Source: Octopus vulgaris
Lineage: Eukaryota
Reading direction: 5' to 3'
Assembly: GCA_951406725.2 (NCBI GenBank)
Contig: OX597814.1
Location: 140,244,001-140,308,000, forward strand
DNA: 64,000 nt
Below, one piece after another: positions 7,096-62,961 of this stretch. A program made the translations under genes and the position numbers. Every line of letters begins with the position of its first letter. Position 1 is the first letter of the stretch. The notes under the pieces were generated by a model, which was not told where the DNA came from, did not search any database, and saw nothing but the letters and a program-made list of their open reading frames with translations.

Positions 7096-8623
7096 ATTAA
7101 TCCCATGATGTGTGAATAGATTTAGTATTAAAATATTTCTACATGTTTTTCTTTCCCTGAAGTGCGTATAAACATTTTCTGGCATATTCTGTACATAAAT
7201 ACAAAAATATACACACGCATACATTTATATAATGCTACTTGATCAATACTGTTGTTCATTCTATTGTTGTTTGGTCTCATATTGAATACCATTTTAATTT
7301 CTACCTTGTGTGTGTGTGTCTGTCTGTCTCTTTGTGGGTATTTTTTTTTTTTCAATATCCATCACTGTTGAAAGAAAACATTAACCACCTCCAAAATTCA
7401 TAAACTCCCAGGCTTAATGTCAGTTATTGGTTCATTTCAGTATCATTATCAATCTAATCTAAATTGTGGAAGCAAGACAAAGTAAACTAGATTTCAAAAG
7501 AAAAAGAACTCTTCATATATTGTCCTTGGATTCATGGATGAATCCCAGAGGATCAAGTGTTAGTTTAGTTAGATCTCAATTTGTTGCATTTTGCATGATT
7601 GGTTCAAAATTGTGTCTGTTAGAAAGTATCTGCTCTGACTTTGGAAATTTTCTGTTTATTTTTGTTTTCCTACCTTTAATGTTCACAACATTGTTCATAT
7701 ATTACTTTGTATCTGTTATCCCCTGTTTCTCTGATATATTTAAACCTCTGTGTGTCTGTATCCCAAAATGTATTATTTCTTTTAAAAAGTCTGTCTTCAT
7801 TTTCCCCCTACACTATGAGCATTCTTCATTATAAATCATACAGGTATTGCCTGCACTTTGGCACATGCTTTATATTTTGTATTTGTACCGCTGTAACGAA
7901 TCACTATTCTCTTGAACAGATGCTGTATAAAATCACACATTTATGAACAGTTTTTCAATTGTTTTGTATGCTTGACTTGAGAGCCAGTATCCAATAATTG
8001 CCACAATCAGACAAAGATGGTTTCTTCAATTAGAGCTATAACATTTCAGTTTGTTTTAAATAATGAATGTGACTCCTAATATATGTTTTTTTATCTATTC
8101 ATTTATTTGTTCATTTAATCAATGTAAATCTATTTGTTTATGAATTACATAAATTATTTATACTACATACATACACATACATATGTGAATCTTCTTATAC
8201 ATTATTGACATTATTGTAAATCATCCTGAGGCGAAGCTCTGACATATATATTAGAAAATATATTGGCAAAATATTGGCAAGATGCAACTATATGTATTAC
8301 TGTTATGGATTAAATATCAACATTTCAATAAATACTAGTTAACCTTCTAATTTTAATAAATATTAATAACCCACAATAAATATTAATACACTTCATACTT
8401 AAGCTCACTACTGCCATCCCTAACAGCAAACTTACTTTCCATTAAAAGCCCATAAGTTGTAACACACTAACTCTATTTACTTCATTAATCATTCTTTCTA
8501 AATTCAAATTGTACATTTTTTTTTTGTTCTCATTGTTGCTATTTCATTTCTTCTCAATTTTCATGCTTTTTTCCATTCATTTATACATTCAATCATTGCT
8601 TCATTACATTAATCTGTATTTAG

Positions 8624-8659
8624 GCGCAAGTCCAGCATATCCAGCCTGGGTGCATCTTT
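8624..8659 (+). CDS. Candidate 36-nt micro-exon of the SLC4 gene (RKSSISSLGAS-L)
   Basis: ctgtatttag|GCGCAAGTCCAGCATATCCAGCCTGGGTGCATCTTT|gtaagta. Phase 2-2, GC-rich island in AT-rich intron, similar to the 21793 exon. Confidence 0.7.
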
Positions 8660-9419
8660 GTAAGTATCTCATGTCTCCTCTCCCTCAATCATTAGCTGAG
8701 AACCCACCTCTTTTTTTGTTTTTTATCAATATATAATGTTAGTATCTTTATCTTTTTAATGTCCTAGTGTAGTACAAGTTATATTAATTATCTTTTGATT
8801 TATGCATTACTGAATGCATTTAGTATACCACATTTTACTTACATAGATATAAGTAATTATATGTGTATGTGTATATAGATAGCTAGATAGATATTCAGGT
8901 ATAGATGTACAACATCTATACACACACACGCACACATACATAATCTGTTTTACAATTTCTCACCAAATAGTCAAACAGAATAATTGGTAGATATTTGGTT
9001 AAGTGGCTGCTTGAATAACTAACGGGAGGGGAAAAGCATGCTAATATGTGGGCCAATCTTCCATGATTGCAATAATGATGTCCAGAGAATGATAATGTCA
9101 GATGATGCCAAAATCACCTTGCATGTTCAAATTGTTTGGATAAGCCATATCCCTGCTGAAACTATGAAATCAGTGTCAATGATGTTATTAAATAATATCA
9201 GACTCTACTTTTGTAATGAGTCTTTCATTCAGTTAAGTTCACATGTTTTTTGTGGGGTTTTTTATCTATTTGCTTCCCAACCTTATGATTCCAGGTTCGG
9301 TCCTGCTGCGTAGCACCTTGGGCAAGTGTCTTTTTCTATAGCCTCAGGCTGACCAAAACTTTGTGAGTGAATTTAGCAGATGGAAGCTGAAAGAAGCTTG
9401 TTGTATACATGTGTGTGTG

Positions 9420-9480
<61 letters not shown>

Positions 9481-9800
9481 TACTGCTTGACAGTAGTGCT
9501 TGTTGTGTTTACATTCCTGTAACTTAATGGTTTGGCAAAGAGACCAATAGAATAAGTAGCAGGCTTTAAAAAAAAGTACTGGAGTTGATATGGTTGACTA
9601 AAAGTTCTTCAAGGCAATACCCCAGCATGGCCACGGTCTAATGACTGACACAAGTAAAAATAAAAGAAATAGATATATAGATAGGTGTGATCCTGTTTAT
9701 TTAAATCTCTTGTGTCATATCCCTTACTAGGTGTATATGTCATCTCTCATGCACATATTCAGCTATTATAATATATTGAAGCATACACAGCATATACATA

Positions 9801-10186
9801 GGCGCAGGAGTGGCTGTGTGGTAAGTAGCTTGTTTACTAACCACATGGTTCCGGGTTCAGTCCCACTGCATGGCACCTTGGGCAAGTGTCTTCTACTATA
9901 GCCTCGTGCCAACCAAAGCCTTGTGAGTGGATTTGGTAGATGGAAACTGAAAGAAGCCCGTTGTATATATGTGTATATATATATATGCGTGTGTGTATTT
10001 GTCCCCCTAGCATTGCTTGACAACCGATGCTGGTGTGTTTATGTCCCCGTTACTTAGCGGTTCGGCAAAAGAGACCGATAGAATAAGTACTGGGTTTACA
10101 AAAGAATAAGTTCTGGGGTTAAGTTGCTCGATTAAAGGCGGTGCTCCAGCATGGCCGCAGTCAAATGACTGAAACAAGTAAAAGAG
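9801..10186 (+). mobile_element. tRNA-derived CORE-type SINE (octopus OK/OR-like), full length
   Basis: A box TGGCTGTGTGG, B box GGTTCAGTCCC, CORE-like CCTTGGGCAAG, tail gactgaaacaagtaaaag. A tandem older copy lies at about 9270-9670. Confidence 0.85.
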
Positions 10187-10465
10187 ATATTCGGATGTAC
10201 ATTCCAACAAACATAGAGTAAAATCTATTAATATTACTATATTTTCTCCTTGGTATGTAAACAAAATTTTTACATGTATATTTAATCACTTATATCACGC
10301 AAACCCTGTTAATCAAAATGATCAAATATTGTCTTAATCTACTTCTGTGTGTATGATATCTACACATTAGAATTATTATACTGAAATTAGAAAACTATCT
10401 TCATATAAGTCAGACATTTACATTGTACAGTGGAAAATATTTTAAAGCAGATGGGTTTTCTCTCA

Positions 10466-10510
<45 letters not shown>

Positions 10511-11574
10511 TCCCTCTCTTAGTTTATTTCATCTTCCCTCCTGTTTTTCTAAAGTCTGGAAATATATGGAATTTACAAACATATATTTATTAATTATTAT
10601 GGATTACAACTCTATAACGTACCATGTCTGAGATGTCTCTTTTGTTCTAGACGTTTTGCTCAGATCAAACTAAGAGAATTACTATCTTATACATTAATAT
10701 ATATTTTTTGTAGATCTTTGGAACATTGTTCCAAAATATTATTGTAGCATCAGGCCACAAACAATAGTTTCCATCATCTTTGAACTTGAACCTATAATAT
10801 TGAGTAATATGGCTTTAAGTTTCTTGTTTTCTAACAGTTGTCTTATAATAAAAATTTTGTTATATACATTTAGAAGTCATATAAATACTGATATCTTTTT
10901 TGTCTTTTTTCCTTCTGTATTTCACATATTTTGACCTTACATATTCTGTCTTTTAATGTTATAAAGCATCTTTGCATAGTATGATGTAAATCTTAAAAAA
11001 AAAAATAATTCATAACATTTTTAGTTTAATTTGATTGGTTATTTGAAGGAATTGGTAATTTCCATTTCATAATTTGTTTCAGTTGACTTTTCAAAGACAG
11101 TGAATGCTATTTTTGAAAAGAAAATCTAGAGAGTTTAATGTATATTTAAAGAATGTTTTATAAAATATTAATACATATTGTGGCTAAAGGACTTCTGGTT
11201 CACAGGAATAATAAAGTTAAATTATTAGGGTTTGTTTCATTTTTTTAAACATTAATTCTGCATACACAATTGGATTTGTTAACATTTGTAATTTATGAAA
11301 CTAGAATTCTCTTTGAAAATATACATGTTATAATTTCTGACGATAAAATACTTTACTTTACCATCAAGCTATTTGAAATACTTTTGAAAGATTTCTGTTG
11401 ATAACTTTCTAGAGAGTTTTTTTTAAATCATATCTAAAGTTTGGAACAATATCAAGTAATGTATAAATCTTGATTAATGGTCATAGTAATTAGTTCATTA
11501 TTTTTATACATCTTCATCATAGTGATTAAATTGGTACTGCTTTATATGTTCTATAGATATATACTTTTATCTAG

Positions 11575-11583
11575 AACAAAAAG
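11575..11583 (+). CDS. Possible 9-nt micro-exon (T-K-R)
   Basis: cttttatctag|AACAAAAAG|gtatgt. Frame-preserving and open in phase 2, but short enough to arise by chance. Confidence 0.25.
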
Positions 11584-12662
11584 GTATGTTATTCCATTTC
11601 TTGTATATTACTGGTCATCTGTTAATATAATTTGCTGGGGTTTTTTTTTCCTTTCTTAGAAGTATTCAATTATTCCTTGTGCTCCAATATTCATTCTCTC
11701 CTCATCTTTGTTTTGAATATGGATCATTTAATTAGATATCAGTTGACTTTCTTTGGTTTCTGCTACAGCATACAATCATAAGATATTTACAGTATATTTG
11801 TTTATAATTGTTTTCCAAAACGTCTTATACAGCTAGACATAGAAAAGGTTTAGCAAGTTTGGTTTTAATTTCATATGTATTATTTGCTATTGCTTCAAGA
11901 ATTATTCCTTGAACAAATCTAATCACTGTTTCTTCTGACATAGCTGAAATGCATTTACTTTTTACCAGTTCCCAAATTTTTGTTTTGTTTTGCTGATTCT
12001 TTGAATTGTAATGTTCTATTGTTGTTGAAGCTCAGGTCAGTCCTACAGAATAAACGTATAATCAAAGGCATTGCAGCCATCTTTCAGGATCATTGAAACA
12101 GGACCACATTATCAATATGCCCTTTTTTTTGTAGGACACCAGAGTATGTGTTGAGAAGAATTTGGCTGCTACATTTAGCAGGCAAAGCAACCATGTAGAG
12201 ATACCCTAACTACCCCTTAAAAAGATATTTGTGAAATTTTTTAAAATACCCTCTCCTCTTTGCTGAAGAGAAGACTAAATAGAGTTTACACCCATAAAAT
12301 TCTTCTTTCTTTACCATAGTGTTGGACAGGTTTAAAAAGTTTAAAACCATCATTGGATTGCCTTTGTTCAGTCCATTGCAGGACAAAGACCTCAGCATGT
12401 TCCCGTCACCAACCAATTTCATGTAGAGGCTATGAATCTGAGCTTGAGATCATACTGGTTTTATGACACTACTCTACCACAGTGGCTCAACATAGCCTGG
12501 CAGAGGGATGTAGTTTTTTATATTCATGACCAGGATTAGTCAAGTTGATTACATCACAATGTTATCAGACATGTCAATATTTCAACCCTGTTTTAATCCT
12601 CACAGCCCTTACAACCAGAAGATCTGTCCTTCCTATGATAAACACTTAGATCTTATATACAT

Positions 12663-12702
<40 letters not shown>

Positions 12703-12704
<2 letters not shown>

Positions 12705-13485
12705 TGGCTTGATTTAATTTAATCAGGTTAGTTTACCATTAAACGGTAGATGAAACGGTGCATCGTCTAAGAAATTACAGGGTAAAAGTTTTTCAATTTT
12801 CTCCTGGTTTACGGTATTAATGTTATTTTGCGGTTAAAGCTTTTGGCTGTTATTTCTAGTGGGTGAATGGCCTATTATGGCCGTTCCTTGATTGTGATGT
12901 TGAACGTAAAAATGGTTTATGACTATTTAATTTTTTCCTACTAGGCCGCTGGTGGCAAAAGAATTCTACAAAATTTTTTTGCCACCCTATATTGATTAAT
13001 TATGAATTTTCTGGTTAGTTCCGTAACGGAATCGGTGGCTTATATTTATTTGCTGCCGATAAATTTGGCGCGAGTGCGACGATTTGAAAATTTTAAGTCA
13101 GATATTGCCGAGGTAGCAAGAGGAATGCCTCGTGAAAAATATCTGTTCCGATTTGGCTATTTCTTACTGATGAGTCTAAGGGCCTATGGTGGATTGGCTT
13201 GATTTAATTTAATCAGGTTAGTTTACCATTAAACGGTAGATGAAACGGTGCATCGTCTAAGAAATTACAGGGTAAAAGTTTTTCAATTTTCTCCTGGTTT
13301 ACGGTATTAATGTTATTTTGCGGTTAAAGCTTTTGGCTGTTATTTCTAGTGGGTGAATGGCCTATTATGGCCGTTCCTTGATTGTGATATTGAACGTAAA
13401 AATGGTATATGACTATTTAATTTTTTCCTACTAGGCCGCTGGTGGCAAAAGAATTCTACAAAATTTTTTTGCCACCCTATATTGA

Positions 13486-13490
<5 letters not shown>
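12703..13490 (+). mobile_element. Non-coding tandem retroelement (retrozyme / Penelope pLTR-like), 490-bp period, about 1.6 copies
   Basis: 12703-13000 is repeated at 13193-13490 with only two substitutions seen. Flanked by (TA)n on both sides and contains a hammerhead core. Confidence 0.8.
13159..13265 (+). ncRNA. Type I hammerhead ribozyme
   Basis: Stem I ATTTCTTA/TAAGAAAT (8 bp), CTGATGA at 13167-13173, stem II GTCTA/TAGAT plus a long G-U-rich hairpin, GAAA at 13242-13245, near-palindromic stem III ACGGTGCATCGT, GTC cleavage triplet ending 13257. Confidence 0.85.
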
Positions 13491-13528
<38 letters not shown>

Positions 13529-13730
13529 ATATGTATGTATGTATATATGTATGTATGTATATATGTATGTATGTATATATGTATGTATATATGTGTGTAT
13601 ATATATATGTGTGTATATATATATATATATACATACACACACACACACACACACGCATATATATATGTATATATGTGTATGTATATCTATGTATGTGTAT
13701 GTTTTATATATATATATATATATATATTAT
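13491..13730. repeat. Compound (TA)/(TATG)/(CA) microsatellite, one of many in the window
   Basis: Directly visible; the source of the YI/YV-rich spurious ORFs. Confidence 0.95.
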
Positions 13731-14199
13731 GGGTTTCAGCCAGAGGCTGTGGCCATGCTGATGCCCTGCCTTTACTACATCCGGGGAGTCCTATATTTCT
13801 ACAGTCAAATCAATATTTTATGCTTCCAAAATATGCCTATCAATTATTGCATACACATAACATTTCAACCAAGCTAAACAGTTTAGAATTCCATGCTAAA
13901 ATATCTCGTAAATCAGTAGCAGTTCCTTCCCAATTCATCTTGTTGTCTAAATGTCTTTACCGCTTGCTGCAAGATGTAACATATTTATCACCTGCTACAT
14001 TATTGATTTACATATATATATATATATATATATATTATTTAGCAACAGTTTGACTTAGCTCCATGCAACTTAGTTTCGTGGGCTTGTTGAATGATCTTAG
14101 GTTGTCAGGAAGTTTGAGATCTCCAAATGTCTGACAAGCCAAGCTCCTATTAACTGTATTGAGTGTCACTTTCTTTCACATGTCCACTTGTACACGTAC

Positions 14200-14552
14200 A
14201 CACACACACACATGTATATATATGGTGGTTGTATACTCCTTTTGAAGAGTTTGACCACCTCCTGTACCTACACCTTAGGACCATCATGGCATCTAACATG
14301 CCTTTTTAAACCAGACAATGTTTTGAAGAGACATCCACATAGATTGCATATTCGATTTGGACCACCAAGAGCTGAAGTTAAGTTCTGATCTTTGTGGATC
14401 TTAAAATGTCTTTTGAGGCCTTCATTAGATTTGCAGACCTTCTGGCATACGTTGCATTGAAAGGTGTGCACTGACATTGGTGAAGGTTCATTTTCCGTGA
14501 GTCCAGCAAAAGAAAGGCATGATTTGTCACAAACTATACACACTAAAAGGTC
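14200..14552 (-). pseudogene. C2H2 zinc-finger fragment (2 intact fingers, 1 broken), probably a LINE 3' end
   Basis: CNVC-x12-H-x3-H and CNLC-x12-H-x3-H with non-TGEKP linkers. Stop is followed by a short tail running into microsatellite. Confidence 0.65.
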
Positions 14553-14617
14553 ATGATGATGATGATGATGATGATGATGATATATATATACATACACATA
14601 CATACATATACACACAT

Positions 14618-14692
<75 letters not shown>

Positions 14693-15396
14693 TATATATA
14701 TACATACTTATATTCTCATACATATATTCTCATACTTTATATATATATTGAAATTTTCCACCCAAGTTAACAAAGGAAAAACTAGATCCATAACTAAAGT
14801 GTAAAATTTGCATTACTAAAAAATTTTTTAAATGATAAATTAAACTGATTAGAACTACCGGTGAAGTCATTCTTTTTCTTTTTTTGAAATATATATACTC
14901 ATATATAGTGATCATTTGTTTCACACCTAGAAAGCGCTTAGCTGTATAGGCAACTTATCACATATACAACTAAGTGCTTTGTAGGTGCAGAACCAATGGT
15001 CACTTTATGATTAGCCATAACATTTAACGTGCTTCTTTTTCAGACATATGAACTACTGGCGATATATTCATATGTTGGCCTATGGCCTCTGTAAAATATG
15101 GAGAAGGAAATGATTTTTCTTTTGCAGTTGAAATGTTCCATATGTAGAACTGGTCAGCTGGTCAGCAATTTGGTGGAGACCATGTGGACACCATGAAAAA
15201 CTCAGGCCAGCTAGCGGAAAAGTTGTTTTCCTCCATATTTTAAAGAGGCCAACAAGTCTTGAGGTCTGGAGATATTTCATAAAGGTACCCTTTATGGAGT
15301 ATCTTCTGTCATTAAAAGACACACCCTACTGTCATTAAAAAGAAACCCAGGGTAACCCTATAAACCAGTTTTCACCAATAATAAATATATATATAT

Positions 15397-17143
15397 CATC
15401 ATCATCATCGTTTAACGTCCGTTTTCCGCGCTAGCACGGGTTGGACGGTTCGACCGGTGTCTGGGAAGCCAGGGGCTGCACCAGGCTCCAGTCTGATCTG
15501 GCAGTGTTTCTACAGCTGGATGCCCTTCCTAATGCCAACCACTCCGCGAGTGTAGTGGGTGCTTTTTACGTGCCAGGGGAGTCTGACATCGGCCACGATT
15601 GGGTGGTGCTTTTAACGTGCCACCGGCACGGAAGCCAGCCAAGGCGCCGCTGGCATCGGCCACTTTTGGATGGTGCTTTTTATGTTCCACCGGCACAGAA
15701 GCCAGTTGAGGTGGCGCTGGCATCGGCCACATTCAGATGGTGCTTTTTATGTGCCAACGGCACAGAAGTCAGTCGAGGCGGCGCTGGCAACGGCCACGTT
15801 CGGTTGGTGCTTTTTATGTGCCACCGGCACAGAAGCCAGTCGAGGCGGCGCTGGCATCGGCCACATTCAGATGGTACTTTTTATGTGCCAACGGCACAGA
15901 AGCCAGTCAAGGCGGCGCTGGCAACGGCCACGTTCGGATGGTGCTTTTATGTGCCACCAGCACAGGTATCACAACTACTATTTCCATTGATATTTGTTTC
16001 GATGTTGATGTACATGCACTTGACTCAACAGGTCTCCTCAAGCGCAGCTCTGGGATCCAAGGTACTTTGAATGGGCAGGGGCTATGTGGAACTGGTGCCG
16101 GAAGCAGCCCAGGTCTTTGCAGTCACAGCACATCTCCAGAGATCTCGGTCCTTCGCCATCACCTCAGTGAGGCCCAACGCTCTGAGGTCATGCTTGACTA
16201 CCTCATCCCATGTCTTCCTGGGTCTACCTCTCCCCCTGATTCCTTCAACTGTTTGGGAGCGGCACTTCTTCACACATCCCCCCTCATCCATCCGCAGTAC
16301 ATGACCATACCATCGCAAGCGTTGCTCTTGCACACCACATCTGATGCTTCTTATGTCCAGCATTTCTCTCAGGGTGCTTACACTCTGTCGTGCATGCACA
16401 CTGATATTACACATCCAGCGGATCATGCTAGCTTCATTTCTTTGAAGTCTACGCATGTCCTCTGCAGTCATGGCCCATGTTTCACTACCGTGAAACATGG
16501 CAGTTCGCACACATGCATCATACAATCTACCTTTCACTCTGAGTGAGAGACCCTTTGTCGCCAGTAGGGGTTGGAGCTTTCTAAACTTTGCCCAGGCTAT
16601 TCGTATTCTAGTGGTGACACTCTCTGAGCATCCACCTCCACTACTAACTTGGTCACCCAGGTAGCAGAAACTATCAACTACTTCTAGTTTCTCCCCCTAG
16701 AGTGTGATGGAATCTGTTTTCTGAGTATTTGTGGTGTCTATTGTCCCTGTGCATCTGCCGTACATGAACGCTATCTTATCAGTTAATTTCCCTTTGATGT
16801 TGCTGCACCTCTTATGCGTCCATAGCTTACACTGGGTGCATCTTATGGAGTTTCTACCTACACCTTTCCTACAGATCAAGCAGGGCCACCTGCCCAATGG
16901 GGTGTGTGCTGAGTTCGCCTTTCTGCTTACTATAACTTTGGTCTTTGCTACATTTACTCTAAGGCCCTTTGATTCTAACCCTTGTTTCCACACCCGAAAT
17001 TTCTTTTCTAGTTCTGGTAGTGATTCTGCTATGAGAGCCAGGTCATCAGCATAGAGGAGCTCCCAGGGGCAACCTGTTTTGAATTCCTCTGTTATTGCCT
17101 GGAGGACTATGATGAATAAAAGGGGACTGAGGGCTGAGCCTTG

Positions 17144-17146
<3 letters not shown>
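15397..17146 (-). mobile_element. 5'-truncated RTE-clade LINE (RT C-terminal half, 3' UTR, (GAT)n tail)
   Basis: HQGSALSPLLF..WELLYADDL..GLRVNVAKTK..FCYLG..HGSETW..RLRWYGHVLR..GRGRPRKTW all in one frame, with a single TAG at 16697-16699. Confidence 0.93.
15590..15965. repeat. 67-bp minisatellite (about 5.5 copies) in the LINE 3' UTR
   Basis: Unit atggtgctttttatgtgccaccggcacagaagccagtcgaggcggcgctggc.. recurs at 15670, 15737, 15804, 15871, 15938. Confidence 0.9.
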
Positions 17147-17185
<39 letters not shown>

Positions 17186-17340
17186 CTATAAATGTATATA
17201 TATATACATATATATCACTGTGACGTCACCGTGACCGACCAGGCTATCAGATGTTGCTACACATCGCTGGTCACAATGCACTTCACATTGTTTTAGCCTT
17301 CAAATGACACCATCCCGCTGGCTAAGTGAGCAGGCCATGG

Positions 17341-17655
17341 CCGTTTGCCAGCTCTGTCTGGCCCCGTGTCGGTGGCACGTAAAAGCACCATCCGTTCGTG
17401 TCCGTTGCCAGCATCGCCTGGCCCCGTGCCGGTGACACGTAAAAGCACCAACCGTTCGTGGCCGTTCGCCAACTCTGTCTGGCACCTGTGCAGGTGGCAC
17501 GTAAAAAACACCCACTACACTTGTGGAGTGGTTGGCGTTAGGAAGGACATCCAGCCGTAGAAACACTGCCAGATCTGACTGGGCCTGACGAAGCCTTCCA
17601 GCTTCACAGACCCCAGTTGACCCGTCCAACCCATGATGATGATGATGATGATGAT
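17341..17655 (+). mobile_element. RTE 3' UTR fragment with 60-bp repeats and (GAT)n tail, inverted relative to the 15397 copy
   Basis: Reverse-complement similarity to 15397-15965; ends ccgtccaacccatgatgatgat. Confidence 0.8.
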
Positions 17656-20600
17656 ATATATATATACACACACACACACATCGTATATATATATGTGCCT
17701 ATATACATATACACATCATATATCTATATATTTGTGTATATATATATGTGTGTGTGTGTCTGTATGTGTATATATGTATGTATATTTTATATTGGTCATC
17801 TTTGTCATGTAACTTACTCTTCATGATGCACCTGACTGAATTTCATTTTGGGATATGTTCTTGTTTTTAGGGAGAGCTTAATACATAAATTACTTCACAA
17901 TCAATATTTTTCAACCCAGCATATTAGACACCACTCAGCCCATCCATTAGTATTCAATCTATTTGGTTGGCCAATATAGAGACTAAATTTAAGATCAACA
18001 CAAGAGCTCTATTTAAGTGTAACTCAATTCAAACAGGAAATTACTAAGTCAAGGCACAAAAATATTTTGATAATGCTTTGAATGATTGAGATTATCATGA
18101 CAATAGATATGTCAATGATAAAGAAGATAACTGCAGCTATAAATATGATGCTTGTGAAGACAATAACACTCTTAATAACTAACAGGAAACAACAACACTA
18201 TGAGGGAGCCTTTACATGGTTGCTCAACCTGTTAGGCTAGAAACAGCAGTCAAACCTCCTTCAAAATACACCTTACTAGCTTAAAGGGGGAAAGAAGTCA
18301 GATTTGATAATGGTGGTCTTAGTTATTCCTAAAGAAGTGTGGGATGATCCTAGTTGGGATGGTTTTTTTCATAGGTCTCAATATGAGGGTAAGCAATAAC
18401 AACACTGACTACAAGTTACATAGGGACCCTTTATGTCATCACTTGATCTATTAGAAAGAGTAGTCAAATATCTCTTAAACCACACCCCACTGTCGTTAAA
18501 AAGTAATAGATGTACTATGTAGTCCTAGATACAGTATATCTGAAATTGACCAAGGGATTATGACTAGATGACTTTTGACTGTAAGTTTGCTTGATCAGAC
18601 CTGACCTGGGGCTAAACAACACTATGATAAAAAATTGAAAATAATAATTATAAGGAAAACAATGTGATAAATAACTGAGAACAGTGATAATGACATTATC
18701 ACTGAGTGAAATATCACAAACAACAGCTTTATCATTATACTAAATATAATAATAATAGGTTACAGTTTGATGTTTATATATATATATATCTAGAATGGAA
18801 AATATATATATGTCTACCAAGCAGTATATACTGTAAATTTGATTATTTGAAATCAGGCCATTACCCTATAATAGGAACTGCTCTAAGAAATAGTTTAAGG
18901 AGACTTCCTGTATTTGATCATCCTGATTATCATAAAATAATTGAATCAGGAACCACATGTAATATTTCAAAACTATGGAATTGAAAGCTGGTATTGAAAA
19001 CTTTTCAAGTGTGAGCAAGAGTTCTGATCACCATTTATCAGGGCAATGTCACAAAAATTAGCATACAGTAATATCTTAGTTAACACTTTTCCATTTAGCA
19101 TAGATTTTCTGTAGCAATCTGTTTTCCAAGAGACTATGTCTTCGGCAGAGCCTGTAGATGCTCCATATTTCATATATTTTCTAACTTTTATTTAGATGCA
19201 TTAATTTATATATAACATTGTTTTATTATATTGAATATTTGTATGATGATGAGCTAAACAATAGATTGAGGTTATTAATAAATAAAAGTAAATCATGCTA
19301 TTGCTGTGTCAGAGGAGAACTAAATCATCTCTGAAATTGCCTTGTTTGGACTTTTCTCAAATTAATCCTCACAGATTAAATTTTTGTGCACTAACATGCA
19401 GATACTGAATAAATCTGTTAGAATTGGTTAAGCATGTGTACTATGTATGAAATGGGGGGAATTCCAGAAAGTAATCTGCTATCAAAAATGTGTTAATTCA
19501 TTTCCCATATCTCAAGTGCACACACAGAGCACTGTGCATACTCAGTTTTCACACAGTTCTCACACAGTAAGGGTTAAGAAATTGCTCTTTATTCATGCTT
19601 TCTCATTGATTCTTTTGTCAGTTCTTCCTCATATCCTGTCTACTGTTCTTCATTCATATTATTTAATAGCTGCTCTCTCTTTCAAAGTTGTCACATATAA
19701 TCTGCTCACTGTTCACCATTCATGAACTTTCTTCATATTTGTTGGCTTTCCCTTTTACACCAAAGGTATCTCATACATTCATATTCAGTTGTGTTGGCTC
19801 TTTTTAGTTGATAGTTTTGTCTTAAACATTCTCTTATAACCTTTGTTCTTTCCTCATCCTTTAACTGTATCATTTCATTCTTCCTGTTGATGTTTCAAGT
19901 CTTCAGTTTTATTCCATATTCTGAAATGAGAATAAACTTTGTTCCAACACTCAGTGCTCTGAGTTCATATCTCACTGAGGTCAGCTTTATCTTTCATTCT
20001 TTTGAGGTAATAAAAATGTATCAATCCAAGGAAATAGATTAGCAGATGTCTTGCATTCTAAGTTCAAATCCTGCCATAGCCTATTTGGGAAGTCGATCTA
20101 ATTGGTCAACTGATTTACCACCACCATTTGGCACTGTGGTTGCCTTTAGCAGAGTCCACTTTGTTGCAACTATTCAGGCCAGGTTTCTGGTTTAAAGATA
20201 GCTTCTCTTTCACCCATCTTGGCAGCCAGGTTATGGGCACTATCTTCATCATCATCATCAACCCATAGACATTACTATGTCAAGTCCTAAGGCTCATAAG
20301 GCTGGTTACTCTGTTTCTGTTGTTTATCAGTGACTAAGATCACAACATTCCCTTCAAACAGGACACCAGTCCATCATAAGGATATTCATTTACAACAGAA
20401 TGGATTGGACCAGCATGAAATGAGGTGTTTTGCTCATGAACACAATATGCTCCTTGGTCTGGGAATTGAAATCATGATCTTGTGGTTGTGAGGGCAACAC
20501 TCTAACCACCAGCCAGACCATGTTTCTTCATTGCCTCCCCTCTTGACTGAAGGATAAAGGAAATATTCTATAACATTAGACCCTATAACTTAATGTCACA

Positions 20601-21695
20601 ATGTATAACATTACATTGTGTGATGTTATTTAAAGTTAAGATTTTGGAGGATGTGAAAGTGAATAACTGAATTTTTCAGCCTTTTGATGATATTTATTAC
20701 TTTCATTTGTGTTCGAATCACTGTTAAAAATAGCCTATCAAGCTTGTATCTCTATGCTATGTTATAATGACCTCGTATAGCACTGTATCTACAAAGCTAT
20801 CCGAGGTATTAATATCCTTGGTATGTGGGAAGTAGTGAGGAAGCACAATATCAAGCAAGTTAAAAGCAACGAATGGAGAGATAGACAGAGAGGAATAAAG
20901 CAAAATTTGATTTTTAGAAATGAGTTACTGTTAGGTGGTAAAAAATTTTATAGAAACTTGTTGAGGAAATAGTTTGTATTAACAACACCTAGTTGCTACA
21001 AGATATTTTTCTTTGAAGATTTTTTTTCCTCAGCATGGCCCAAAAATGTCTTGAGATGCAGATATTAAACAGTTTGATCTTTTCATATTGGAATCACATT
21101 TGCTTCTTATTTAATATTTAATTTAAAATAGAGATTATCTTTTCTACGTTATACGGTATATTGCCACATTATACTTTATATTGTTTTATTTCGTGTATTT
21201 CTATAATGTAAGTGTATTTTCGTAAAATAATACAGAATAACAACACTCTCATAAGTATGCTGTTTTCTTATTAAAATGTGCATTCTATATGAATATGTGA
21301 AACCAAGGAAAATATATTAAGGGTTGACTTAAGGATATTAATGAAAGAGTATAGGTAACACTACATTACATTTAAGTAGTAGATTGGCAGAATCATTAAA
21401 GCATCAGACAAAATTCTTGCAGCATTTAATTACAGCCCTTATGTTCTGAGTTCAGATCGCACAAAGGTCAGTTTTGTCCTTTTATCTTTCTACAGTCAAT
21501 AAAATAAAGTACCAATCAAGTTCTGAGGTTAATTCAATATTCCTGTAATGTATCACAGATGTAAATAGAATTTTAATAAATGGCATTATCTTGATAATTA
21601 AAAAGAAGTTTAAACGTCAAAAAAATTATGGTGGGTACATCTTTTAGAAATAGGATTTTAAAATAAATAATGCAATCTAAGGAATATATTATATA

Positions 21696-21734
<39 letters not shown>

Positions 21735-21792
21735 GATGATTGCTAAATAAGGTACATTTCTTTCACCTGTTCATTGTCCTGCTTGGTTCTAG

Positions 21793-21828
21793 ACGTCGGC
21801 CCAGTATTGCCAGCATTGGTGTTTCATT
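21793..21828 (+). CDS. Candidate 36-nt micro-exon of the SLC4 gene (RRPSIASIGVS-L)
   Basis: cttggttctag|ACGTCGGCCCAGTATTGCCAGCATTGGTGTTTCATT|gtaagta. Phase 2-2, in frame with the phase-2 acceptor at 38285. Confidence 0.72.
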
Positions 21829-22579
21829 GTAAGTACTGCATGTTCTTTCCCCTCTCTCGATATATAGAACTATTACTAACATCAACAACATATTAAATAA
21901 TGTCATCAATAACATTCCCTTCTATTGGTGTTGTTTTTTTATCCTTTCAAATTAGTCTTGGACAAATATTTGTTAGAATTTTTTTTTTTTTTGGTATGGT
22001 TTTCATTTCTATTTTTTGTGTTAGTTATAGATCAGAATAAATTACTACAACCCAAAAAAGAACCCCCATTTTTATTGGACTTTTATATCTAAAGAAAAAA
22101 AAACAACTTTAAATAACAGATATCTGAGATGAATTCTTTATTCTGCTATTACTGCATTTAGTTAACCTCTGACTAGTCTAGACTCTCTCTTTCTCTGCAC
22201 CAACTTTCATTTCTATCACCCTTGCCTTTCACCTGCATGTCATTCATTACAAAAATATATTCATAAACTCACCACCTCCTCTGTCTCATCTATATATATA
22301 CTCTCTTTTCTCATTTCATTTGTTTACATGTGCTTCTGCAGTCATATTTCAATGATTTGTCATTGATTTTTGTTCAATCATGTTTGTTGAGCTGTCTAAA
22401 TTCTTTCATATCATTTTGCACACATTTATCTCCAAACTTTAAAATAAGCAACATTTTTTTTGTGTCTATCTCATTCAGTTTCTTTATTGTTATATAATTA
22501 TAAATTGTGGAATATGTTCATATTACACACACACACATGTATATATACATACAGTTTGTAATATATATATATATTTATA

Positions 22580-26837: not shown

Positions 26838-29800
26838 TCTCTCTATATATAAACGGCAGTTTGTCTGTGCGTGCTTCTGTGTGTCTGTTTTCTCGTACCC
26901 TCACCCTGACCACGGCTTTCAACCGATTCTGATGAAACTTGACACACACATAGCCCAATGTCATAATTCAAAACTAACGCAGCGAAAATTTTGAAAAGTT
27001 CCCCCAGTTCTGAAAAAAATTGATAAATTCGACATGGGGTCGAGAATCATAAACATGAACCACAGACTGTCTAGGGGACGCAACTCGAGAATCTAAGCTT
27101 TTTTTATGCAACGCATTATCTATGGTAGTTTTCACAACTTGCAATCGATTTTCACCAAACTCATGGTGAAGCTTAATGTTACCCTAAGAAACTCAATTCT
27201 GACGTTAGTTTTCCATGCAATACCTTACCATCAGAAACAATCGATAAAATCATGCCATTTTGGGAAATCGCGTTCAAATTCAAGATGACATATTTTCGAC
27301 AATATCTTTCACAAATTGGCAGGAATCTTTTTTTTTTTCACAACGAGCATCATGTCTGCTCCAAGGAGCTATATAGCCCTTTTTATTCCAATAGGATACA
27401 TTATTGGAAAAAATCGGTTAATTTAATCATATGTGGCACACATAGCAAACAAATTTGTGTATTAAACACAAACCAGACTGTCTAGGGGACGCAACTTGAC
27501 CTTTTTAGCTATCGATAATTCGATCCAACCAATTCCTACCAGGAAGAAATTACATTCGAGACTTTACCCCCAACACCGCCACTTCTGCTAATAGCTGCTG
27601 CAGCCGCAAGTTATTCGAATACTTTTTTTGTTTAAACTTTCTTTATAACTACCACCCCAAACGTTTTACCTTCAATTTTTGACGTACCCTAACGGTCCTC
27701 GGACGCTACTTGCAAACTCTTGGTTTATTAGAAACCACTTTTGTCGTGTGCATCAAAAAACTTTTCCTTTCGTTTGTTCAGTTTGATCACTTTTGACTTT
27801 TTCGTTGTTGTCACTCACATTGCTGCCAGCTTTTTGGCCGTTTTTGTACATTTTTATACATTTTCGGATACTTACCCCACGAGCTCCTTTTTATTACACC
27901 TTTACCAAACACATTGCTATCCACCAAAATACTTACCCCACGTGTTCCTTTTTATTACACCTTTGCCAAACACATTGCTATCCACCAAAATGCCACCCAA
28001 GAAGAGAAGGACCCTCCTCAGCCCTCGGACGGCCAAGGCATCGGCTGCTAGGGCTAGAAGGGCACGCGAGACCCACGAGGAAACCGCCTTGCGCCTCTCG
28101 CAAACAGCTTCCCGTTATGCCGCTGCTCAGGCATCTGAAACTACTAGCGACCGTTCTACCCGACTTGCAAGGGTCGCAGCGTACAGATCTTCCCTCCGCT
28201 CGAGGTTGACGAAAGAGCAACAGTCCAGCCAAAACATGCGGGCTTCTTACTGTGCTTCCATCCGCAGAGCTCGCGAGAACCCCGAACAAAGGGCCATTCG
28301 GAATGCGGCCAACGCCACTAGCACCGCCAGGACACGATCTGTCGAAACATCACAGCAGAGGAGAACTCGCCAAGATGCTGACGCCGCAAACAAAGCCATG
28401 GCCAAAGCTGCCGAAACACCTCAACAGAGGAGAGCTCGCCAAGCTGCTAACGCCGCAAACACAGCCAGGGCTCGATCTGCCGAAACTCCACACCAACGGA
28501 CTATTCGGACATCCAGACATGCCATTAACACTGCTTCTGCTAGGGCTTCAGAGGGTGCTGAGGCGAGAGCTGAAAGGCTTTCAAGGGATGCCACTGCTAC
28601 CGCTGTCGCACGTGCATCTGAATCTGCTGAGGCACAGTGCACTCGACTTGAGAGTATCAACAAACGTCGGGATATCATTCGTGGTGTACGTACCCCTGCC
28701 CCCGCTTTCTGGTTGTCACTAGCATTCAATTACGACGCCACAATTAACTTCTCCTTGCGTGACGACATCAAGATAGGGTCAATGACAATTGTATGCCAGT
28801 TTTGCAAAGCCAAGAAATGGCCCGGAGAGCCACCTGGTTTGTGCTGCTCTGGTGGCAAAGTGGACCTGCCACCCCTACGGGAACCACCTCAACCACTGAA
28901 GGATCTCGCGGCGGGTTTAACCCCCGATTCGTCACAATTCCTTGAAATAATTCGAAAGTACAACTGCTCATTCCAAATGACCTCTTTCGGGGCCAAAATT
29001 CCTCCCAGAGAAGGCTGGATGCCTACTTTCAAAGTGCAGGGACAGGTCTACCATCTTATTGGGTCACTTCTGCCAGACGAGATTCAGCAGTCTTCTTTCC
29101 TCCAAATATACTTCATTGCCGACTACAACCACCAGGTTGATGCACGCCTTGGAATAATACCGGGTACAAGCTATGTTCCCCGCAAAGACATTCTTCTCCG
29201 TTTCCAAACCATGCTTCATGATATCAACAGCTACGTCTGCAGCTTCAGATATGCCTTGGACAGTGCTCCATCTTCAAACTTCACCGTTGTCATTGATGCT
29301 GATAAACGACCCCACGGGGAGCACGAACGCTGTTTCAACGCACCTGCGTGCAACGAAATTGCCGCAGTCATACACGGAGAGCAACACAACAGCCGTGACA
29401 TAATCATCTCCTCCCGTGGTAACAACCTACACAGGATCAGCGAGACTCACAGATCTTATGACGCGCTTCAGTATCCATTGCTTTTCCCTTATGGGGAAGA
29501 CGGCTACCACTTCGGAATTCCTTTACGGCAGCCCTCCAATCAAACTACTGCGGCATCAAAGACGGTTTCCTGCAGGGCGTTCTACTCATACCGGTTCATG
29601 GTCAGGGAGGGTGAGTTCAACTTATTGCCCCGTTGTCGTCAGCTATTCAACCAGTTCGCCGTCGACATGGCCGCAAAAATGGAATCGGAAAGGCTGCTAT
29701 ACATTAAACTTAATCAGACCAAACTTCGCTCCGACTCCTACATTCATCTCCGTGACGGTTTGCAACAAGAAAATGACCCTCGCAACATCGGCAAGCCATG

Positions 29801-30061
29801 CATCCTACCCTCCACCTTCACGGGAGGACCGCGATATATGCGTGAAAGGACCCAAGACGCCTTGACCTACGTGCGCATTTACGGCCGGCCGGACCTCTTT
29901 ATCACCTACACGTGCAATCCCAGCTGCGACGAAATCACTCGCGAACTCCTCCCGGGTCAATCTCACACCCATCGACACGACATCGTTGCTAGGGTTTTCC
30001 GTCTGAATTTGGGCAACTAGGGGCTCTTACATACCCGGGCAACGCCGGGCTATGCTGCTAG
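26838..30061 (+). mobile_element. Helitron, internally deleted (non-autonomous), intact termini
   Basis: 5' A|TC(TCTCTATATATAAA). 3' hairpin CCCGG-GCAACG-CCGGG followed by CTAG|T. A/T insertion with no TSD. Encodes the RepHel N-terminal half. Confidence 0.95.
27990..30020 (+). CDS. Truncated Helitron RepHel (676 aa): NLS, 9 STPR-like 23-aa repeats, Zn-finger, Rep N-terminus; no HUH or helicase
   Basis: MPPKKRR start. Motifs CQFCKAKKW..CCSGGKV, YNCSFQMTSFG, FKVQGQVYHLIGSL, YDALQYPLLFPYGEDG, ILPSTFTGGPRYM, GRPDLFITYTCNP. Stops 41 nt before the element end. Confidence 0.9.
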   Translation: MPPKKRRTLLSPRTAKASAARARRARETHEETALRLSQTASRYAAAQASETTSDRSTRLARVAAYRSSLRSRLTKEQQSSQNMRASYCASIRRARENPEQRAIRNAANATSTARTRSVETSQQRRTRQDADAANKAMAKAAETPQQRRARQAANAANTARARSAETPHQRTIRTSRHAINTASARASEGAEARAERLSRDATATAVARASESAEAQCTRLESINKRRDIIRGVRTPAPAFWLSLAFNYDATINFSLRDDIKIGSMTIVCQFCKAKKWPGEPPGLCCSGGKVDLPPLREPPQPLKDLAAGLTPDSSQFLEIIRKYNCSFQMTSFGAKIPPREGWMPTFKVQGQVYHLIGSLLPDEIQQSSFLQIYFIADYNHQVDARLGIIPGTSYVPRKDILLRFQTMLHDINSYVCSFRYALDSAPSSNFTVVIDADKRPHGEHERCFNAPACNEIAAVIHGEQHNSRDIIISSRGNNLHRISETHRSYDALQYPLLFPYGEDGYHFGIPLRQPSNQTTAASKTVSCRAFYSYRFMVREGEFNLLPRCRQLFNQFAVDMAAKMESERLLYIKLNQTKLRSDSYIHLRDGLQQENDPRNIGKPCILPSTFTGGPRYMRERTQDALTYVRIYGRPDLFITYTCNPSCDEITRELLPGQSHTHRHDIVARVFRLNLGN

Positions 30062-31138
30062 TTTTCTATAAAGTACAGACAACTGTGTTTGTTAAAATAA
30101 ACTAAGTTAAAATGGGATCCTTTCTAAGCATTACATTAATTTAACAGTAACCTTTTCTGTCTTTTAATAACTTATTACACTCTTAATAATATTTATCAGT
30201 TTTTTTTTTTTTAGATCAGTTTGACCAAACAAAAACCTAAAATCAAGTTTAGCTTAAGTTACACTATAAGATAAGTACTGTCAATATATGTTTTCATATT
30301 CTAGAACATTGATACCTAATATACAGATACCTATTGAAGGATATTTGGTTCATTGTCAGCTGATAAATGGTAACGTTAGTTATAAATATGATCGTTAGTT
30401 CATAATTAATTTTTAGATGAGATATTTTATGATTAATTAGAGAAACATGAAAATATGTGACAGTTGATTTTTGACGGTTATGTCATCTAGTAGATGATAT
30501 TTTGATAAATGCCTGACATTTCTCTCTTGCATATAACCACAGACTTTGATCATGGTTCACATATGTGTCTATAAAGTATTTAATGCAAAAAGTATTTTAT
30601 GTGTTACAACATTTAGAAACTGTCAACCTTCTTTCAGATTTTATTTTCCCAAGGTTGGAAGAATTTGTTTTTTTTTTCTTCTCTTCTATTTCTTTCTTAT
30701 TTTCATTCTCAGAATGATTTCTCACTGTTTCAGTTTGTCAATGTTTGGAATTTTCAAGTGAATGTGTTTTTTTATGTGTCTTACTTTTGTTGTTTTTTTT
30801 TTTTAATTTTATTTTGATATTTTGTATTTATTTTACTTTTTTACTTTTGTACATCAAAATAATCTTGACACTGATTACAATGTGTTGCATGATATGTAAT
30901 AATTTTACTATTGTTATTTTAGAACTAAGAAATAATTCTTCTTTTTATTATTTTATTACTTTAACAATGTTTCTTCAATCTAGGAAAGATACACCGTAGT
31001 AGAACATTCATACTGAATTAATTTTAATAACTGACCTAATATTAATTGAAAGTAAATCGTTTACTTTGGTGCAAACTCAGTTTAGTACTTAGATTACTTT
31101 TCTTAATTTTTTTCAGAAAAAAAAAATATATATACATA

Positions 31139-31296
31139 GGCGCAGGAGTGGGTGTGTGGTAAGTAGCTTGCTTACCAGCCACATTGTTCCGGGTTCAGTC
31201 CCACTGCGTGGCACCTTAGGCAAGTGTCTTCTACTATAGCCTTGGGCTGACTAAAGCCTTGTGAGTGGATTTGGTAGACAGAAATTGAATCCCCAT

Positions 31297-37538: not shown

Positions 37539-38284
37539 TTATACATACATAAGCTCACTTATTTTATTCTCATTCCCAATGATATTTTACAAAATGTTAG
37601 CATGTTTTTTTTTTCTGTAAAACAATAGTTTTTTTTTGTCTTGTTTTTTTTCCTTGAAAGTTGTTTTGATATTAAAACATCCACTTAATTACAGTTGGAA
37701 TCCAGAAGTATGGCTTCTCTGATCCTGTGAACATATATATATACATTTACATATATATATGTGTGTGTATATATATATATATATGTGTGTGTTTGTATAT
37801 AAACATATATATATATATAATACAAATATATATATGTTTATATTCTGAAATTTTACATTGTCTTTGCATGCTAAACATTGAATTGCATGTTACTTTTAGT
37901 CTTAATTTTGATGTAGCAGAATGAATAGGTCTTGAATTGGAAAATATAGTAGATTCACTAACATCATTTTCAATTATATACCTTATATACATGTGTGTGT
38001 ATGTTCATATATTATGTGTGCATGTGTTTATACACATGTACTTATACATATATACATGTACACATATATACTAAACACACACACATACATACCCATATAT
38101 ACACACATACACACAAACATACTCAAACAAGAACCACGCAATCATATATACATGCATACAAACATGCACACATATCATCATCATCATCATCATCATCATC
38201 GTTTAACGTCCGCTTTCCATGCTAGCATGGGTTGGATATATATAAATGTATTTTGTCTTATTTTTTTCCCTTGTATTCTTTCAG

Positions 38285-38537
38285 ACATGTTACTCGAGAA
38301 AGGTCACTAATGAAAACCTTGTCATCAGCCAGTTTCACATCTGCTAGTTCTGTGACTAATTTAACTCGAGCTGGCCATCGTGGTAGTAATGCTGTACCAA
38401 ATCTTCATGACCAGTCATCACACAATGTCCATACTCCTACAGGACTGACAGACATGAGTGGCTCTAAGCTTCCAGAAACATCTGTTGGGGAATATACAAA
38501 ATTAGAAATGGCCAAAGTCGATATTGATAATAATATG
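38285..38537 (+). CDS. SLC4A2-like: SLC4 anion exchanger exon (disordered loop of the cytoplasmic domain)
   Basis: Pyrimidine tract ending ttctttcag| acceptor (phase 2). Open frame HVTRERSLMKTLSSASF...KVDIDNNM. Donor ATG|gtaaga is phase 0, matching the next exon. Confidence 0.8.
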
Positions 38538-38857
38538 GTAAGAAATATTTTTCTTTATGTATTTGTTATTGTTTAGCACCAGGATTACCTTTGATCCAGC
38601 ATATCTATGATCAAAAATATTTCAGACATATATGTCTTGTGTGTGTGTGTTGTGGCAAGTGTCACTGACACTCCTGGCAGATTGGAGAATAGACTAGCCA
38701 AACTCTTATATAAGAGTAGAGGTTATTAGCAGTCAAGAGAGAACATCTTTGGTAGTCTCATGAAGTATGCCATAATTTATCTATACCAACCTGTGGCAGG
38801 ATATAAAAGTGTGTGTTTCCTACATCATGGATTACCTTGTCCAATATATACACACGT

Positions 38858-39170
38858 GGAGGCACAATGTCTCAGTGGTTAGGGCAGCAACTCGTGGACA
38901 GAGAATCTCGGTTTCGATTCCCAGACCGGGCGTTGTGTGTGTTTATTGAACGAAAACACCTAAAGCTCCACGAGGCTCCGGCAGGGGATGGTGGCGACCC
39001 CTGTTGTTTTCTTTCGCCCCAACTTTCTCTCACTCTTTCTTCCTGTTTCTTGAGTAATGCTGCGAGGGACTGGCATCCCGTCCAGCTGGGGGGAACACAT
39101 ACGCCATAGAAACCGGGAAATCGGGCCCATGAGCCAAGCTAGGCTTGAAAAGGGCGCATAAATAAAAAAA
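38858..39170 (+). mobile_element. tRNA-derived SINE (third family, V-domain-like)
   Basis: A box tctcagtggttagg, B box gtttcgattccc, gactggcatcccgtccag motif, A-rich tail. Confidence 0.7.
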
Positions 39171-39398
39171 ATATATATACGCACACATTGTGGTGAGCTG
39201 GCAGAATTGTTAGCATGCCAGGGAAAATGCTTAGCATTCTTTCATCTATCTTTATGTTCTTGGTTTAAATGCTGCCAAGGTTGACTTTGCCTTTCACCGT
39301 TACAAGGTCAATAAAATAAGTACTAGTTGAGCATTGTTGTCACCTAAACTGACTTAGCCCCTCTCTCAAAATTGCTGACCTTATGTCAAACTTTGAAA

Positions 39399-39433
<35 letters not shown>

Positions 39434-39441
39434 TCACACAG

Positions 39442-39472
<31 letters not shown>

Positions 39473-39844
39473 TGTGTATACAAACGTATGTATGTATCGT
39501 TATCATCATTTTAATATCCATGTCTCTGTAATTACATGGGTCGGACTGAGTTTATTGAAGAAAATTTTCTATGGCCAGGTGTTCGTCCTGTTGCCAGGTG
39601 TTCGTCCTGTTGCCAGGTGTTCGTCCTGTTGCCAGGACGAACACCTGGTCATAGAGATGTTTCCCAGCGAGATAATATTTTCCCATGACCAGATATGTCT
39701 TTCACATAATATTGGAAATAAATGACACTGCTTGTATTTCAATAACACTCATCTACAACTATCACAATGTCACGACAGGGAAATACAAACACACACATTC
39801 TCACACTCATACACTTAAACACACACACACACACACACATACTA

Positions 39845-40425
39845 TGGGTTTCTTTCACTTTCCATTAACCAAATTCATTCACAAGGCTTTGGTCACTGTG
39901 GAAATATAGTAGAAAACACTTGCCTAAAGTGCCAGGCTGTAGAACTGAACCTGAAATTATATAGTTTGATGCAAACTTCTCAACCACATAGTCTGTGTAT
40001 GTACATATATATATATTTACTCTTTTACTTGTTTCAGTCATTTGACTGCAGCCATGCTGGAGCACCACCTTTAATTGAACAAATCAACCCCAGAACTTAT
40101 CCTTTGTAAGCCTAGTACTTATTCCATCAGTCTCTTTTGCCAAACCGCCAGGTTATGGGGGTGTAAGCACACCAACATCTGTTGCCAAGCAATGGTGGGG
40201 GGACAAACACAGACACACAAATACATACATACATGTGTGTGTGTATATATATATATATATATGACAGGATTCTTTCAGTTTCCATCTACCAAATCCACTC
40301 ACAAGGCTTTGGTCAACCCGATACTATAGTAGAAGACACTTCCCCAAGGTGCCATGCAGTGGGACTGAAATTAGAACCATGTGGTTGGAAGCAAGCTTCT
40401 AACCACATAGCCACACCTGTGCCTG
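39845..40425 (-). mobile_element. Same SINE family, one partial and one full copy
   Basis: Reverse complement of 9801-10186. Other minus-strand partials at about 53845-54000 and 62383-62535. Confidence 0.8.
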
Positions 40426-47479: not shown

Positions 47480-47776
47480 CAGTCTGGTAATGCGCACATT
47501 CCTTTGATATCTCCGGAGTTACAAAAAAGACGAGTTCAGGACATTTTAAAAAGGATACCAATAGGATCTGAAGCTACAACAGTGATGGTTGGATGTGTTG
47601 ACTTCCTTCAAAAACCTGCAATGGCTTTTGTTCGACTTTCAGAAGGTCAAATCATTAAAAACTTTACTGAGGTTCCTTTACCTACTCGTTTTGTATCTGT
47701 GCTACTTGGTCCAGATAATGGAGAGATGGACTACCATGAAGTTGGCCGCTCACTGTCCACTCTTATGTCAAATCAG
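47480..47776 (+). CDS. SLC4A2-like: SLC4 anion exchanger exon (band-3 cytoplasmic domain)
   Basis: Acceptor tttctag|CAG and donor CAG|gtaagg, 297 nt, phase 0-0. Peptide KRIPIGSEATTVMVGCVDFLQKPAMAFVRL...EVPLPTRF..LLGP...MDYHEVGRSLSTLMS is the SLC4/AE signature. Confidence 0.96.
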
Positions 47777-51163: not shown

Positions 51164-51356
51164 AACTTCCATGATGTAGCTTACCAAGCTGAAAGTAGGG
51201 AAGAATTTCTACATGCCATCAATGACTTCTTGACGGAATCTATAGTGTTGCCACCTGGTGACTGGGACCATAAAACTCTACTACCCATCATGGATATGGC
51301 TAGGAAACGAGCAAACTTACGATTGCGAAAAAAACAGAAGCAGATGGAAAAAGAGG
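51164..51356 (+). CDS. SLC4A2-like: SLC4 anion exchanger exon (end of cytoplasmic domain)
   Basis: Acceptor tttttag|, donor GAGG|gtacgt (phase 1). Reads NFHDVAYQAESREEFLHAINDFLTESIVLPPGDWDHKTLLP...MEKE, with the SLC4 F-H-x-x-A-Y and VLPPG-W motifs. Missing from the ORF track. Confidence 0.95.
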
Positions 51357-62754: not shown

Positions 62755-62961
62755 CGCTATTAGAAACCAAGGGAAAAGTTATATTGGATCCACTTTTGAG
62801 GACTGGTCGTCCGTTCGGAGGGCTCATAAATGACATAAAGCGCCGTTATCCATATTACCGAAGTGATATAACAGATTCATTGAATTTACAATGTCTAGCC
62901 GCCTTTGTTTTTATATTCTTTGCATGTTTGTCACCATGTATTGCCTTTGGGGGGTTGTTAG
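62755..62961 (+). CDS. SLC4A2-like: SLC4 anion exchanger exon (start of membrane domain, TM1)
   Basis: Acceptor tatttcag| (phase 1), donor TTAG|gtaagt. [55 protein letters not shown] closely resembles AE2/AE3 from recall. Confidence 0.97.

Follow-up and report, generated by a model that had tools for sequence, protein, structure and literature searches.

Among the closest described systems to the locus reported here is NBCe1 (SLC4A4), whose P-loop lies in a large disordered loop of the N-terminal domain and contains an optional cassette I; according to the available text of that work, phosphomimics in the P-loop reduce transport by about 80%, and the length of the loop matters (PMC12394656). 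Short exons of another described class, those that depend on the eMIC domain, have long AG exclusion zones and UGC motifs and a median length of 31 nucleotides (nt) in the fly, where pasilla is their largest co-regulator, as stated in the accessible part of the report (PMC8797185). In this study, we analyzed a window of 64,000 nt from Octopus vulgaris (contig OX597814.1, positions 140,244,001 to 140,308,000, forward strand; "the window" means this whole stretch), which carries part of an SLC4 gene and, upstream of its first exon in the window, two similar 36-nt blocks, here called ME1 and ME2. We consider it probable, at roughly 0.6, that ME1 and ME2 are duplicated, tissue-restricted cassette exons, which would add basophilic kinase sites to the disordered cytoplasmic loop of the encoded transporter. 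As far as the sequence goes, they are a real duplicated pair with exon anatomy, located in a known hot spot of SLC4 splicing and phosphorylation, and their splicing itself is a candidate.

Two homologous blocks in an SLC4 intron

Re-reading the sequence, we found both blocks as the first-pass annotation had given them, with the same coordinates, the arrangement AG, 36 nt, GTAAGTA, phase 2-2, and a TT end; the base before the AG is a T in both cases. In the frame that skips one base, ME1 reads RKSSISSLGAS(L) and ME2 reads RRPSIASIGVS(L), with the Leu formed at the junction. The anatomy is that of cassette exons, as the splice sites are canonical AG/GT and both frame and phase suit the host intron. 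Exon 38285-38537 starts in phase 2, so the phase of the blocks matches that of the next SLC4 exon, as had been claimed; two bases are left over at the end of the upstream constitutive exon, as they are at the end of cassette B, and the frame holds however ME1 and ME2 are combined. A strict scan of positions 1-38284 for symmetric phase-2 exons between 6 and 63 nt long gave nine candidates, among which a GTAAG donor occurs in ME1, ME2, and one repeat-derived stretch only. The strict definition of a microexon is 3-27 nt, and 36 nt exceeds it. Both blocks also contain an in-register internal CAG, which would yield in-frame 24-nt exons at 8636-8659 and 21805-21828; these versions would lose the basic residues of the kinase motif, and the internal CAG may simply result from AGY codons for serine.

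The host gene is, by its sequence, an AE2-like SLC4 anion exchanger, that is, a chloride-bicarbonate exchanger, and the SLC4 identity proposed at first reading was confirmed. The protein has Band_3_cyto and HCO3_cotransp domains, human AE2 and AE3 are its closest relatives among solved structures, and exons 38285, 47480, and 51164 are identical to the Octopus vulgaris models P0001 and P0004, named "anion exchange protein 2-like"; exon 38285 differs by one residue in O. bimaculoides (P0002). The upstream constitutive exon and the optional cassettes A and B all lie outside the window, and ME1 and ME2 therefore lie in an intron region of more than 38 kb.

ME1 and ME2 are identical at 23 of 36 nt (64%) and at 7 of 12 residues (58%), the junction Leu included. 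Since raw identity is lower for the peptide than for the DNA, the earlier statement that the peptides are more similar than the DNA is correct only if it refers to a synonymous bias: four of the nine changed codons are synonymous in the host frame, against zero to two in each of the other five (permutation P=0.039). No pair equally alike was found in 200 simulated windows (order-3 Markov). In the real window, ME1/ME2 rank 10th among 118 candidate pairs, and the nine better pairs all lie in interspersed repeats; outside repeats, they are first of 57. The homology is thus above chance, as is required of tandem duplicates. The exon cores and both splice sites are kept while the flanks are barely alike, with the downstream flank score reached by 79 of 2000 shuffles and the upstream one by 176 of 2000, so that the likeness is largely limited to exon and donor. 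We infer with high confidence that ME1 and ME2 arose by exon duplication, which upholds the reading of the blocks as duplicates.

It is very improbable that the likeness is accidental, or that the blocks are old remnants of a dispersed repeat carrying splice signals. Interspersed repeats cover 11042 of the 64000 bases, nine in-repeat pairs score higher than ME1/ME2, and copies were counted within the window, all of which would suit such an origin. However, the simulations gave no match, neither block overlaps a repeat match, two copies are present in the window, and the likeness is mostly that of exon and donor. A pattern built from both blocks found no third copy in the window at up to three mismatches. 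The word "array" used in the first-pass annotation therefore stands for the two copies in the window and otherwise overstates the case; the start of the intron lies upstream. A short dispersed repeat with many copies in the window generates false AG..GT exon candidates. A third candidate, 31117-31158, extends with its 3' part into a dispersed repeat and was rejected for this reason. Pattern scans of metagenomes returned no match in the first scan and seven in the second; all seven lack a GT donor at +36, have at most 7 of 14 positions identical outside the pattern, and were judged to be chance.

The disordered loop, its cassettes, and the proposed kinase sites

Model P0004 aligns with human AE2 up to residues 607/431 and resumes at 734/504, and residues 433-498 of human AE2 are unmodelled by cryo-electron microscopy in the available text of the structural report (PMC10066210). 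The blocks thus fall within the disordered loop of the cytoplasmic domain, as had been said at the outset. The view of this loop as a site of optional cassettes was also borne out. Ten loop-spanning cephalopod proteins fall into four forms, with no cassette (4), cassette A (4), cassette B (1), or A, B, and RKSLP together (1), cassette A being 27 and cassette B 17 residues long, and the latter also appears in an RNA contig. Cassette A is present in some isoforms and missing from others in Gigantopelta, Mytilus, Bradybaena, Physella, Magallana, and Haliotis. The squid protein P0009 carries its short basic, Ser-containing insert RKSLP directly before the orthologue of exon 38285, at the same junction as the blocks, and the oyster proteins P0024, P0040, P0042, P0044, and P0045 have a two-residue insert (HR) at the start of the loop; these inserts are possibly encoded by microexons of 15 and 6 nt, respectively. 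We looked for a squid-like KSLP exon of 15 nt and found none in the window. Pulmonate snails (P0020, P0031, P0034, P0035) have more optional inserts one intron downstream, after ...DNNM, and a scan of 38538-47479 found no counterpart of these in the window.

Cassette A contains the motif R-N-x-S-x-x-S/N-L, which is common to bilaterian AE2-clade proteins. At its serine position, the profile has Ser or Thr in each of the 11 forms from outside the cephalopods and Ala in each of the three cephalopod forms (P0003, P0004, P0009); three gapped alignment rows, two of them insects, were omitted from the profile. The motif Ser was seen in other molluscs, amphioxus, sea cucumber, and vertebrate AE2 (S443 by count in human). 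Descent of the block peptides from this conserved motif was considered and is retained as a lead only: their register fits human AE2 RNISAGSLGSLL, but the profile scores are mostly compositional (10 and 5, against 24-26 for the real cassette A), with shuffle fractions of 0.046 and 0.10 and intron-null fractions of 0.003 and 0.040.

The consensus of protein kinase A (PKA) is R-R/K-x-S followed by a hydrophobic residue, and the same motif suits other basophilic kinases. RKSSI in ME1 and RRPSI in ME2 fit this consensus, so the PKA-type motif noticed in both peptides at first reading is there. Squid and cuttlefish-cluster forms of the loop carry RRSS. No [RK][RK]x[ST] site is present in the octopus forms on record, and ME1 and ME2 would therefore supply one. 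In the mechanism that we propose, a single short exon gave rise to a second copy by duplication, and the two would have been retained as optional, tissue-restricted cassettes. Inclusion would add one or two 12-residue segments with basic residues and serines, (K/R)RKSSI and/or (K/R)RRPSI, to the disordered loop, and phosphorylation of the loop would likely tune transport, on the model of NBCe1. If the exons are real, we see about even odds that phosphorylation by PKA or another basophilic kinase would damp exchange as in the NBCe1 P-loop. In a wider and rather unlikely scenario, cephalopods would have swapped the Ser of the loop motif for Ala, and octopus would have rebuilt kinase control as a splice-dosed switch, in which duplicated neural short exons with zero to two PKA-type sites tune neuronal pH and chloride by cell type.

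YCAY is the motif of Nova/pasilla, and GCATG is that of Rbfox. The AG-free zone upstream of ME1 is equalled in length at 0.43% of the 3271 AGs in the window, and its YCAY count is in the top 2% of the window background. This zone, the YCAY cluster, and the TGC motifs weakly suggest that the blocks may be restricted to neural tissue.

Inclusion, skipping, and rival explanations

The first-pass annotation had named RNA evidence as a check on the blocks. At least 24 RNA-like runs (marked "RNA?") were listed, and the contigs of four of them, from four studies, were compared with positions 38205-38630. This evidence consists of contigs, which drop rare forms; the tissues are unlabelled, and the splice partners were read among the matches listed. 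Exon 38285-38537 is covered in all four runs and the intron that follows it in none, and the contigs of runs X1 and X8 run on into exon 47480. Upstream, exon 38285 is joined to the constitutive exon in X1 and X8 and to cassette B in X4. In X14, the contig reaches two bases into the acceptor of exon 38285; these two bases indicate a partner that ends in AG, which is thus not a TT-ended block. The upstream partner in these four runs is therefore never a TT-ended block, and both blocks are skipped in the transcript forms seen. That the X1 graph branches at exon 38285, and that X4 has a different upstream partner from X1 and X8, counts in favor of the cassette-exon explanation.

Several points weigh against the use of ME1 and ME2 as cassette exons with kinase sites. 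Inclusion of either block was found in none of the four runs among the partners of exon 38285 in the matches listed, and the X1 graph branches at 38285 with a depth that fits two partners without a third. Six-residue words of the two peptides occur in none of 224 proteins, the 10 loop-spanning cephalopod proteins included, and a search for short, fragmentary proteins from the loop gave one match, without either peptide. The synonymous bias is modest (P=0.039). The long AG-free zone of ME1 is absent from ME2, whose zone is ordinary in length (11.6%). The signs of neural exons are not specific either, since an AG-free zone of 109 nt and a TGC at -15 also occur at exon 62755, and exon 38285 has 10 YCAY. 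In addition, the fly exons that depend on eMIC have short flanking introns, as described in the available text (PMC8797185), whereas those at ME1 and ME2 are 13 and 16 kb. Finally, cAMP inhibition of AE2 in human airway cells was PKA-independent according to the part of the report at hand (PMC5554290).

Beyond these points, sliding-window scoring of 150 representatives from a HMMER search, many of them without the regular-expression anchors, found no loop insert like the block peptides. In the open-access literature, no paper on these exons was found among the titles and the beginnings of abstracts of the papers listed, and SLC4 is not mentioned in the available main text of a preprint that covers O. 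bimaculoides (bioRxiv 10.64898/2026.09.05.749416).

The blocks could be decayed or barely used pseudo-exons, left exon-like by an old duplication and now unspliced or spliced at noise level. The lack of inclusion in all 10 loop-spanning proteins and, among the matches listed, in all four runs suits this explanation, as does a synonymous bias of merely P=0.039. Nevertheless, although 13 of the 36 nt have been substituted and the likeness of the flanks is nearly lost, length, frame, AG, and GTAAGTA are preserved in both copies, and neither contains a stop. The contigs would also have dropped rare forms from runs whose tissues are unlabelled. We regard pseudo-exons as unlikely, though as an explanation to be taken seriously. 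Another possibility is that the blocks are real exons of a different transcript, such as a nested gene on the same strand or an isoform from an internal promoter, which does not join the upstream SLC4 exons. No read in the four runs ties either block to SLC4 exons, and the intron exceeds 38 kb and begins beyond the window. However, strand, phase, and conserved frame suit an SLC4 intron, the basic, Ser-rich peptides suit the loop, and scans of 1-38284 gave no other convincing coding exon on the + strand, so a different transcript is a decidedly improbable source of the pair. Set against these explanations, we hold inclusion of the blocks in some tissue to be fairly probable.

Within the cassette-exon explanation, ME1 and ME2 might form a strictly mutually exclusive pair that exchanges the RKSS site for the RRPS site. 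Pairs of this kind typically consist of homologous exons that agree in length and phase, according to the available text on tandem duplicated exons (PMC9741552). Nevertheless, double inclusion and double skipping would both be in frame, and double skipping was seen in the runs. The best shared docking site, at 29591, has -24.5 kcal/mol, near the null of -18.3 to -23.4 (six shuffles). Because the blocks are 13 kb apart, steric exclusion between them is ruled out. Mutually exclusive use, which the first-pass annotation had offered, is not favored by anything observed: transcripts with neither block were seen, all combinations are in frame, and the docking scan was near the null. We think it quite unlikely and lean towards independent use of the two cassettes.

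The features of the window are collected in Table 1. Exon 62755-62961 is present in O. bimaculoides P0002 and in the squid protein and missing from O. vulgaris P0001 and P0004. This absence is probably an annotation skip; the AG-free zone and TGC of this exon mean that real skipping may also occur. At the NAGNAG acceptor 47480/47483, the upstream AG is used in P0002 and in the X1 and X8 contigs and the downstream AG in P0001 and P0004. The introns also hold broken remnants of mobile elements at 16085-17185 (-), 40651-41532 (-), about 27800-30000 (a GC-rich insertion), and 52909-53211 (+). By eye, we take the frames at 16085-17185 and 40651-41532 to resemble the reverse transcriptase of a long interspersed element (LINE), and the stretch 52909-53211 to resemble a piece of a mariner-like transposase.

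Table 1 Features of the SLC4 gene and of the two candidate cassette exons in the window
Feature	Position	Strand	Remarks
ME1 acceptor region	8455..8623	+	167-nt AG-free zone; 9 YCAY/150 nt; TGC at -27, -60, -87
Candidate cassette exon ME1	8624..8659	+	36 nt, phase 2-2, (K/R)RKSSISSLGASL; inclusion not seen in proteins/RNA contigs checked
ME2 and flanks	21750..21845	+	41-nt AG-free zone; TGC at -13; GCATG at +10 after donor
Candidate cassette exon ME2	21793..21828	+	36 nt, phase 2-2, (K/R)RRPSIASIGVSL; inclusion not seen in proteins/RNA contigs checked
SLC4 (AE2-like) loop exon	38285..38537	+	253 nt; spliced in 4/4 runs examined
SLC4 exon, Band_3_cyto	47480..47776	+	tandem acceptors 47480 and 47483, one Gln more or less
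SLC4 exon, Band_3_cyto end	51164..51356	+	sequence identity to Octopus vulgaris models, domain match
SLC4 exon, HCO3_cotransp start	62755..62961	+	207 nt, intact; not in models P0001 and P0004

Comparison with known systems

If ME1 and ME2 are spliced in, the octopus AE2-like exchanger would have two coding exons that are missing from its annotation, and the loop, with several optional cassettes, would become a combinatorial regulatory module. They would also offer a simple test of whether control by a phospho-loop, as in NBCe1, reaches the AE branch of the family and whether splicing can set its dose. The principle is known, both for Ser-rich optional cassettes of the SLC4 loop and for duplicated short exons, so the gain is a neat new case and not a new kind of system.

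In the NBCe1 placement used here, we assume a 44-residue offset between the A and B numbering, and the P-loop then sits just before the stretch matched by exon 47480. The NBCe1 system is alike in that a Ser/Thr-rich, disordered N-terminal loop of an SLC4 protein holds an optional cassette, as given in the available text (PMC12394656). However, NBCe1 belongs to the Na-coupled branch of SLC4 and has a single cassette without a homologous pair, and its function was tested, whereas the function of ME1 and ME2 is a proposed one. A further known system comprises the cassettes of the molluscan AE2-like proteins (A, B, the squid RKSLP, and the oyster insert), which lie in the same gene and loop, preserve the frame, and are present or absent by isoform. 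They differ in being found in protein records, and B also in an RNA contig, whereas ME1 and ME2 are in no record examined; unlike these cassettes, ME1 and ME2 are duplicates of each other. With the eMIC/Srrm234-dependent neural short exons, the blocks share a length near the 31-nt median and, at ME1, an AG-free zone with UGC, as described in the accessible text (PMC8797185); they differ in their very long flanking introns and in the ordinary AG-free zone of ME2. Tandem duplicated exon substitutions resemble ME1 and ME2 in that the homologous exons belong to one gene and agree in length and phase, according to the available part of the survey (PMC9741552), whereas ME1 and ME2 can both be skipped and lie in a disordered loop. 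Such exon pairs are usually poorly conserved in disordered regions, at 15.6% of disordered residues in the same available text (PMC9741552), whereas ME1 and ME2 keep 7 of their 12 residues.

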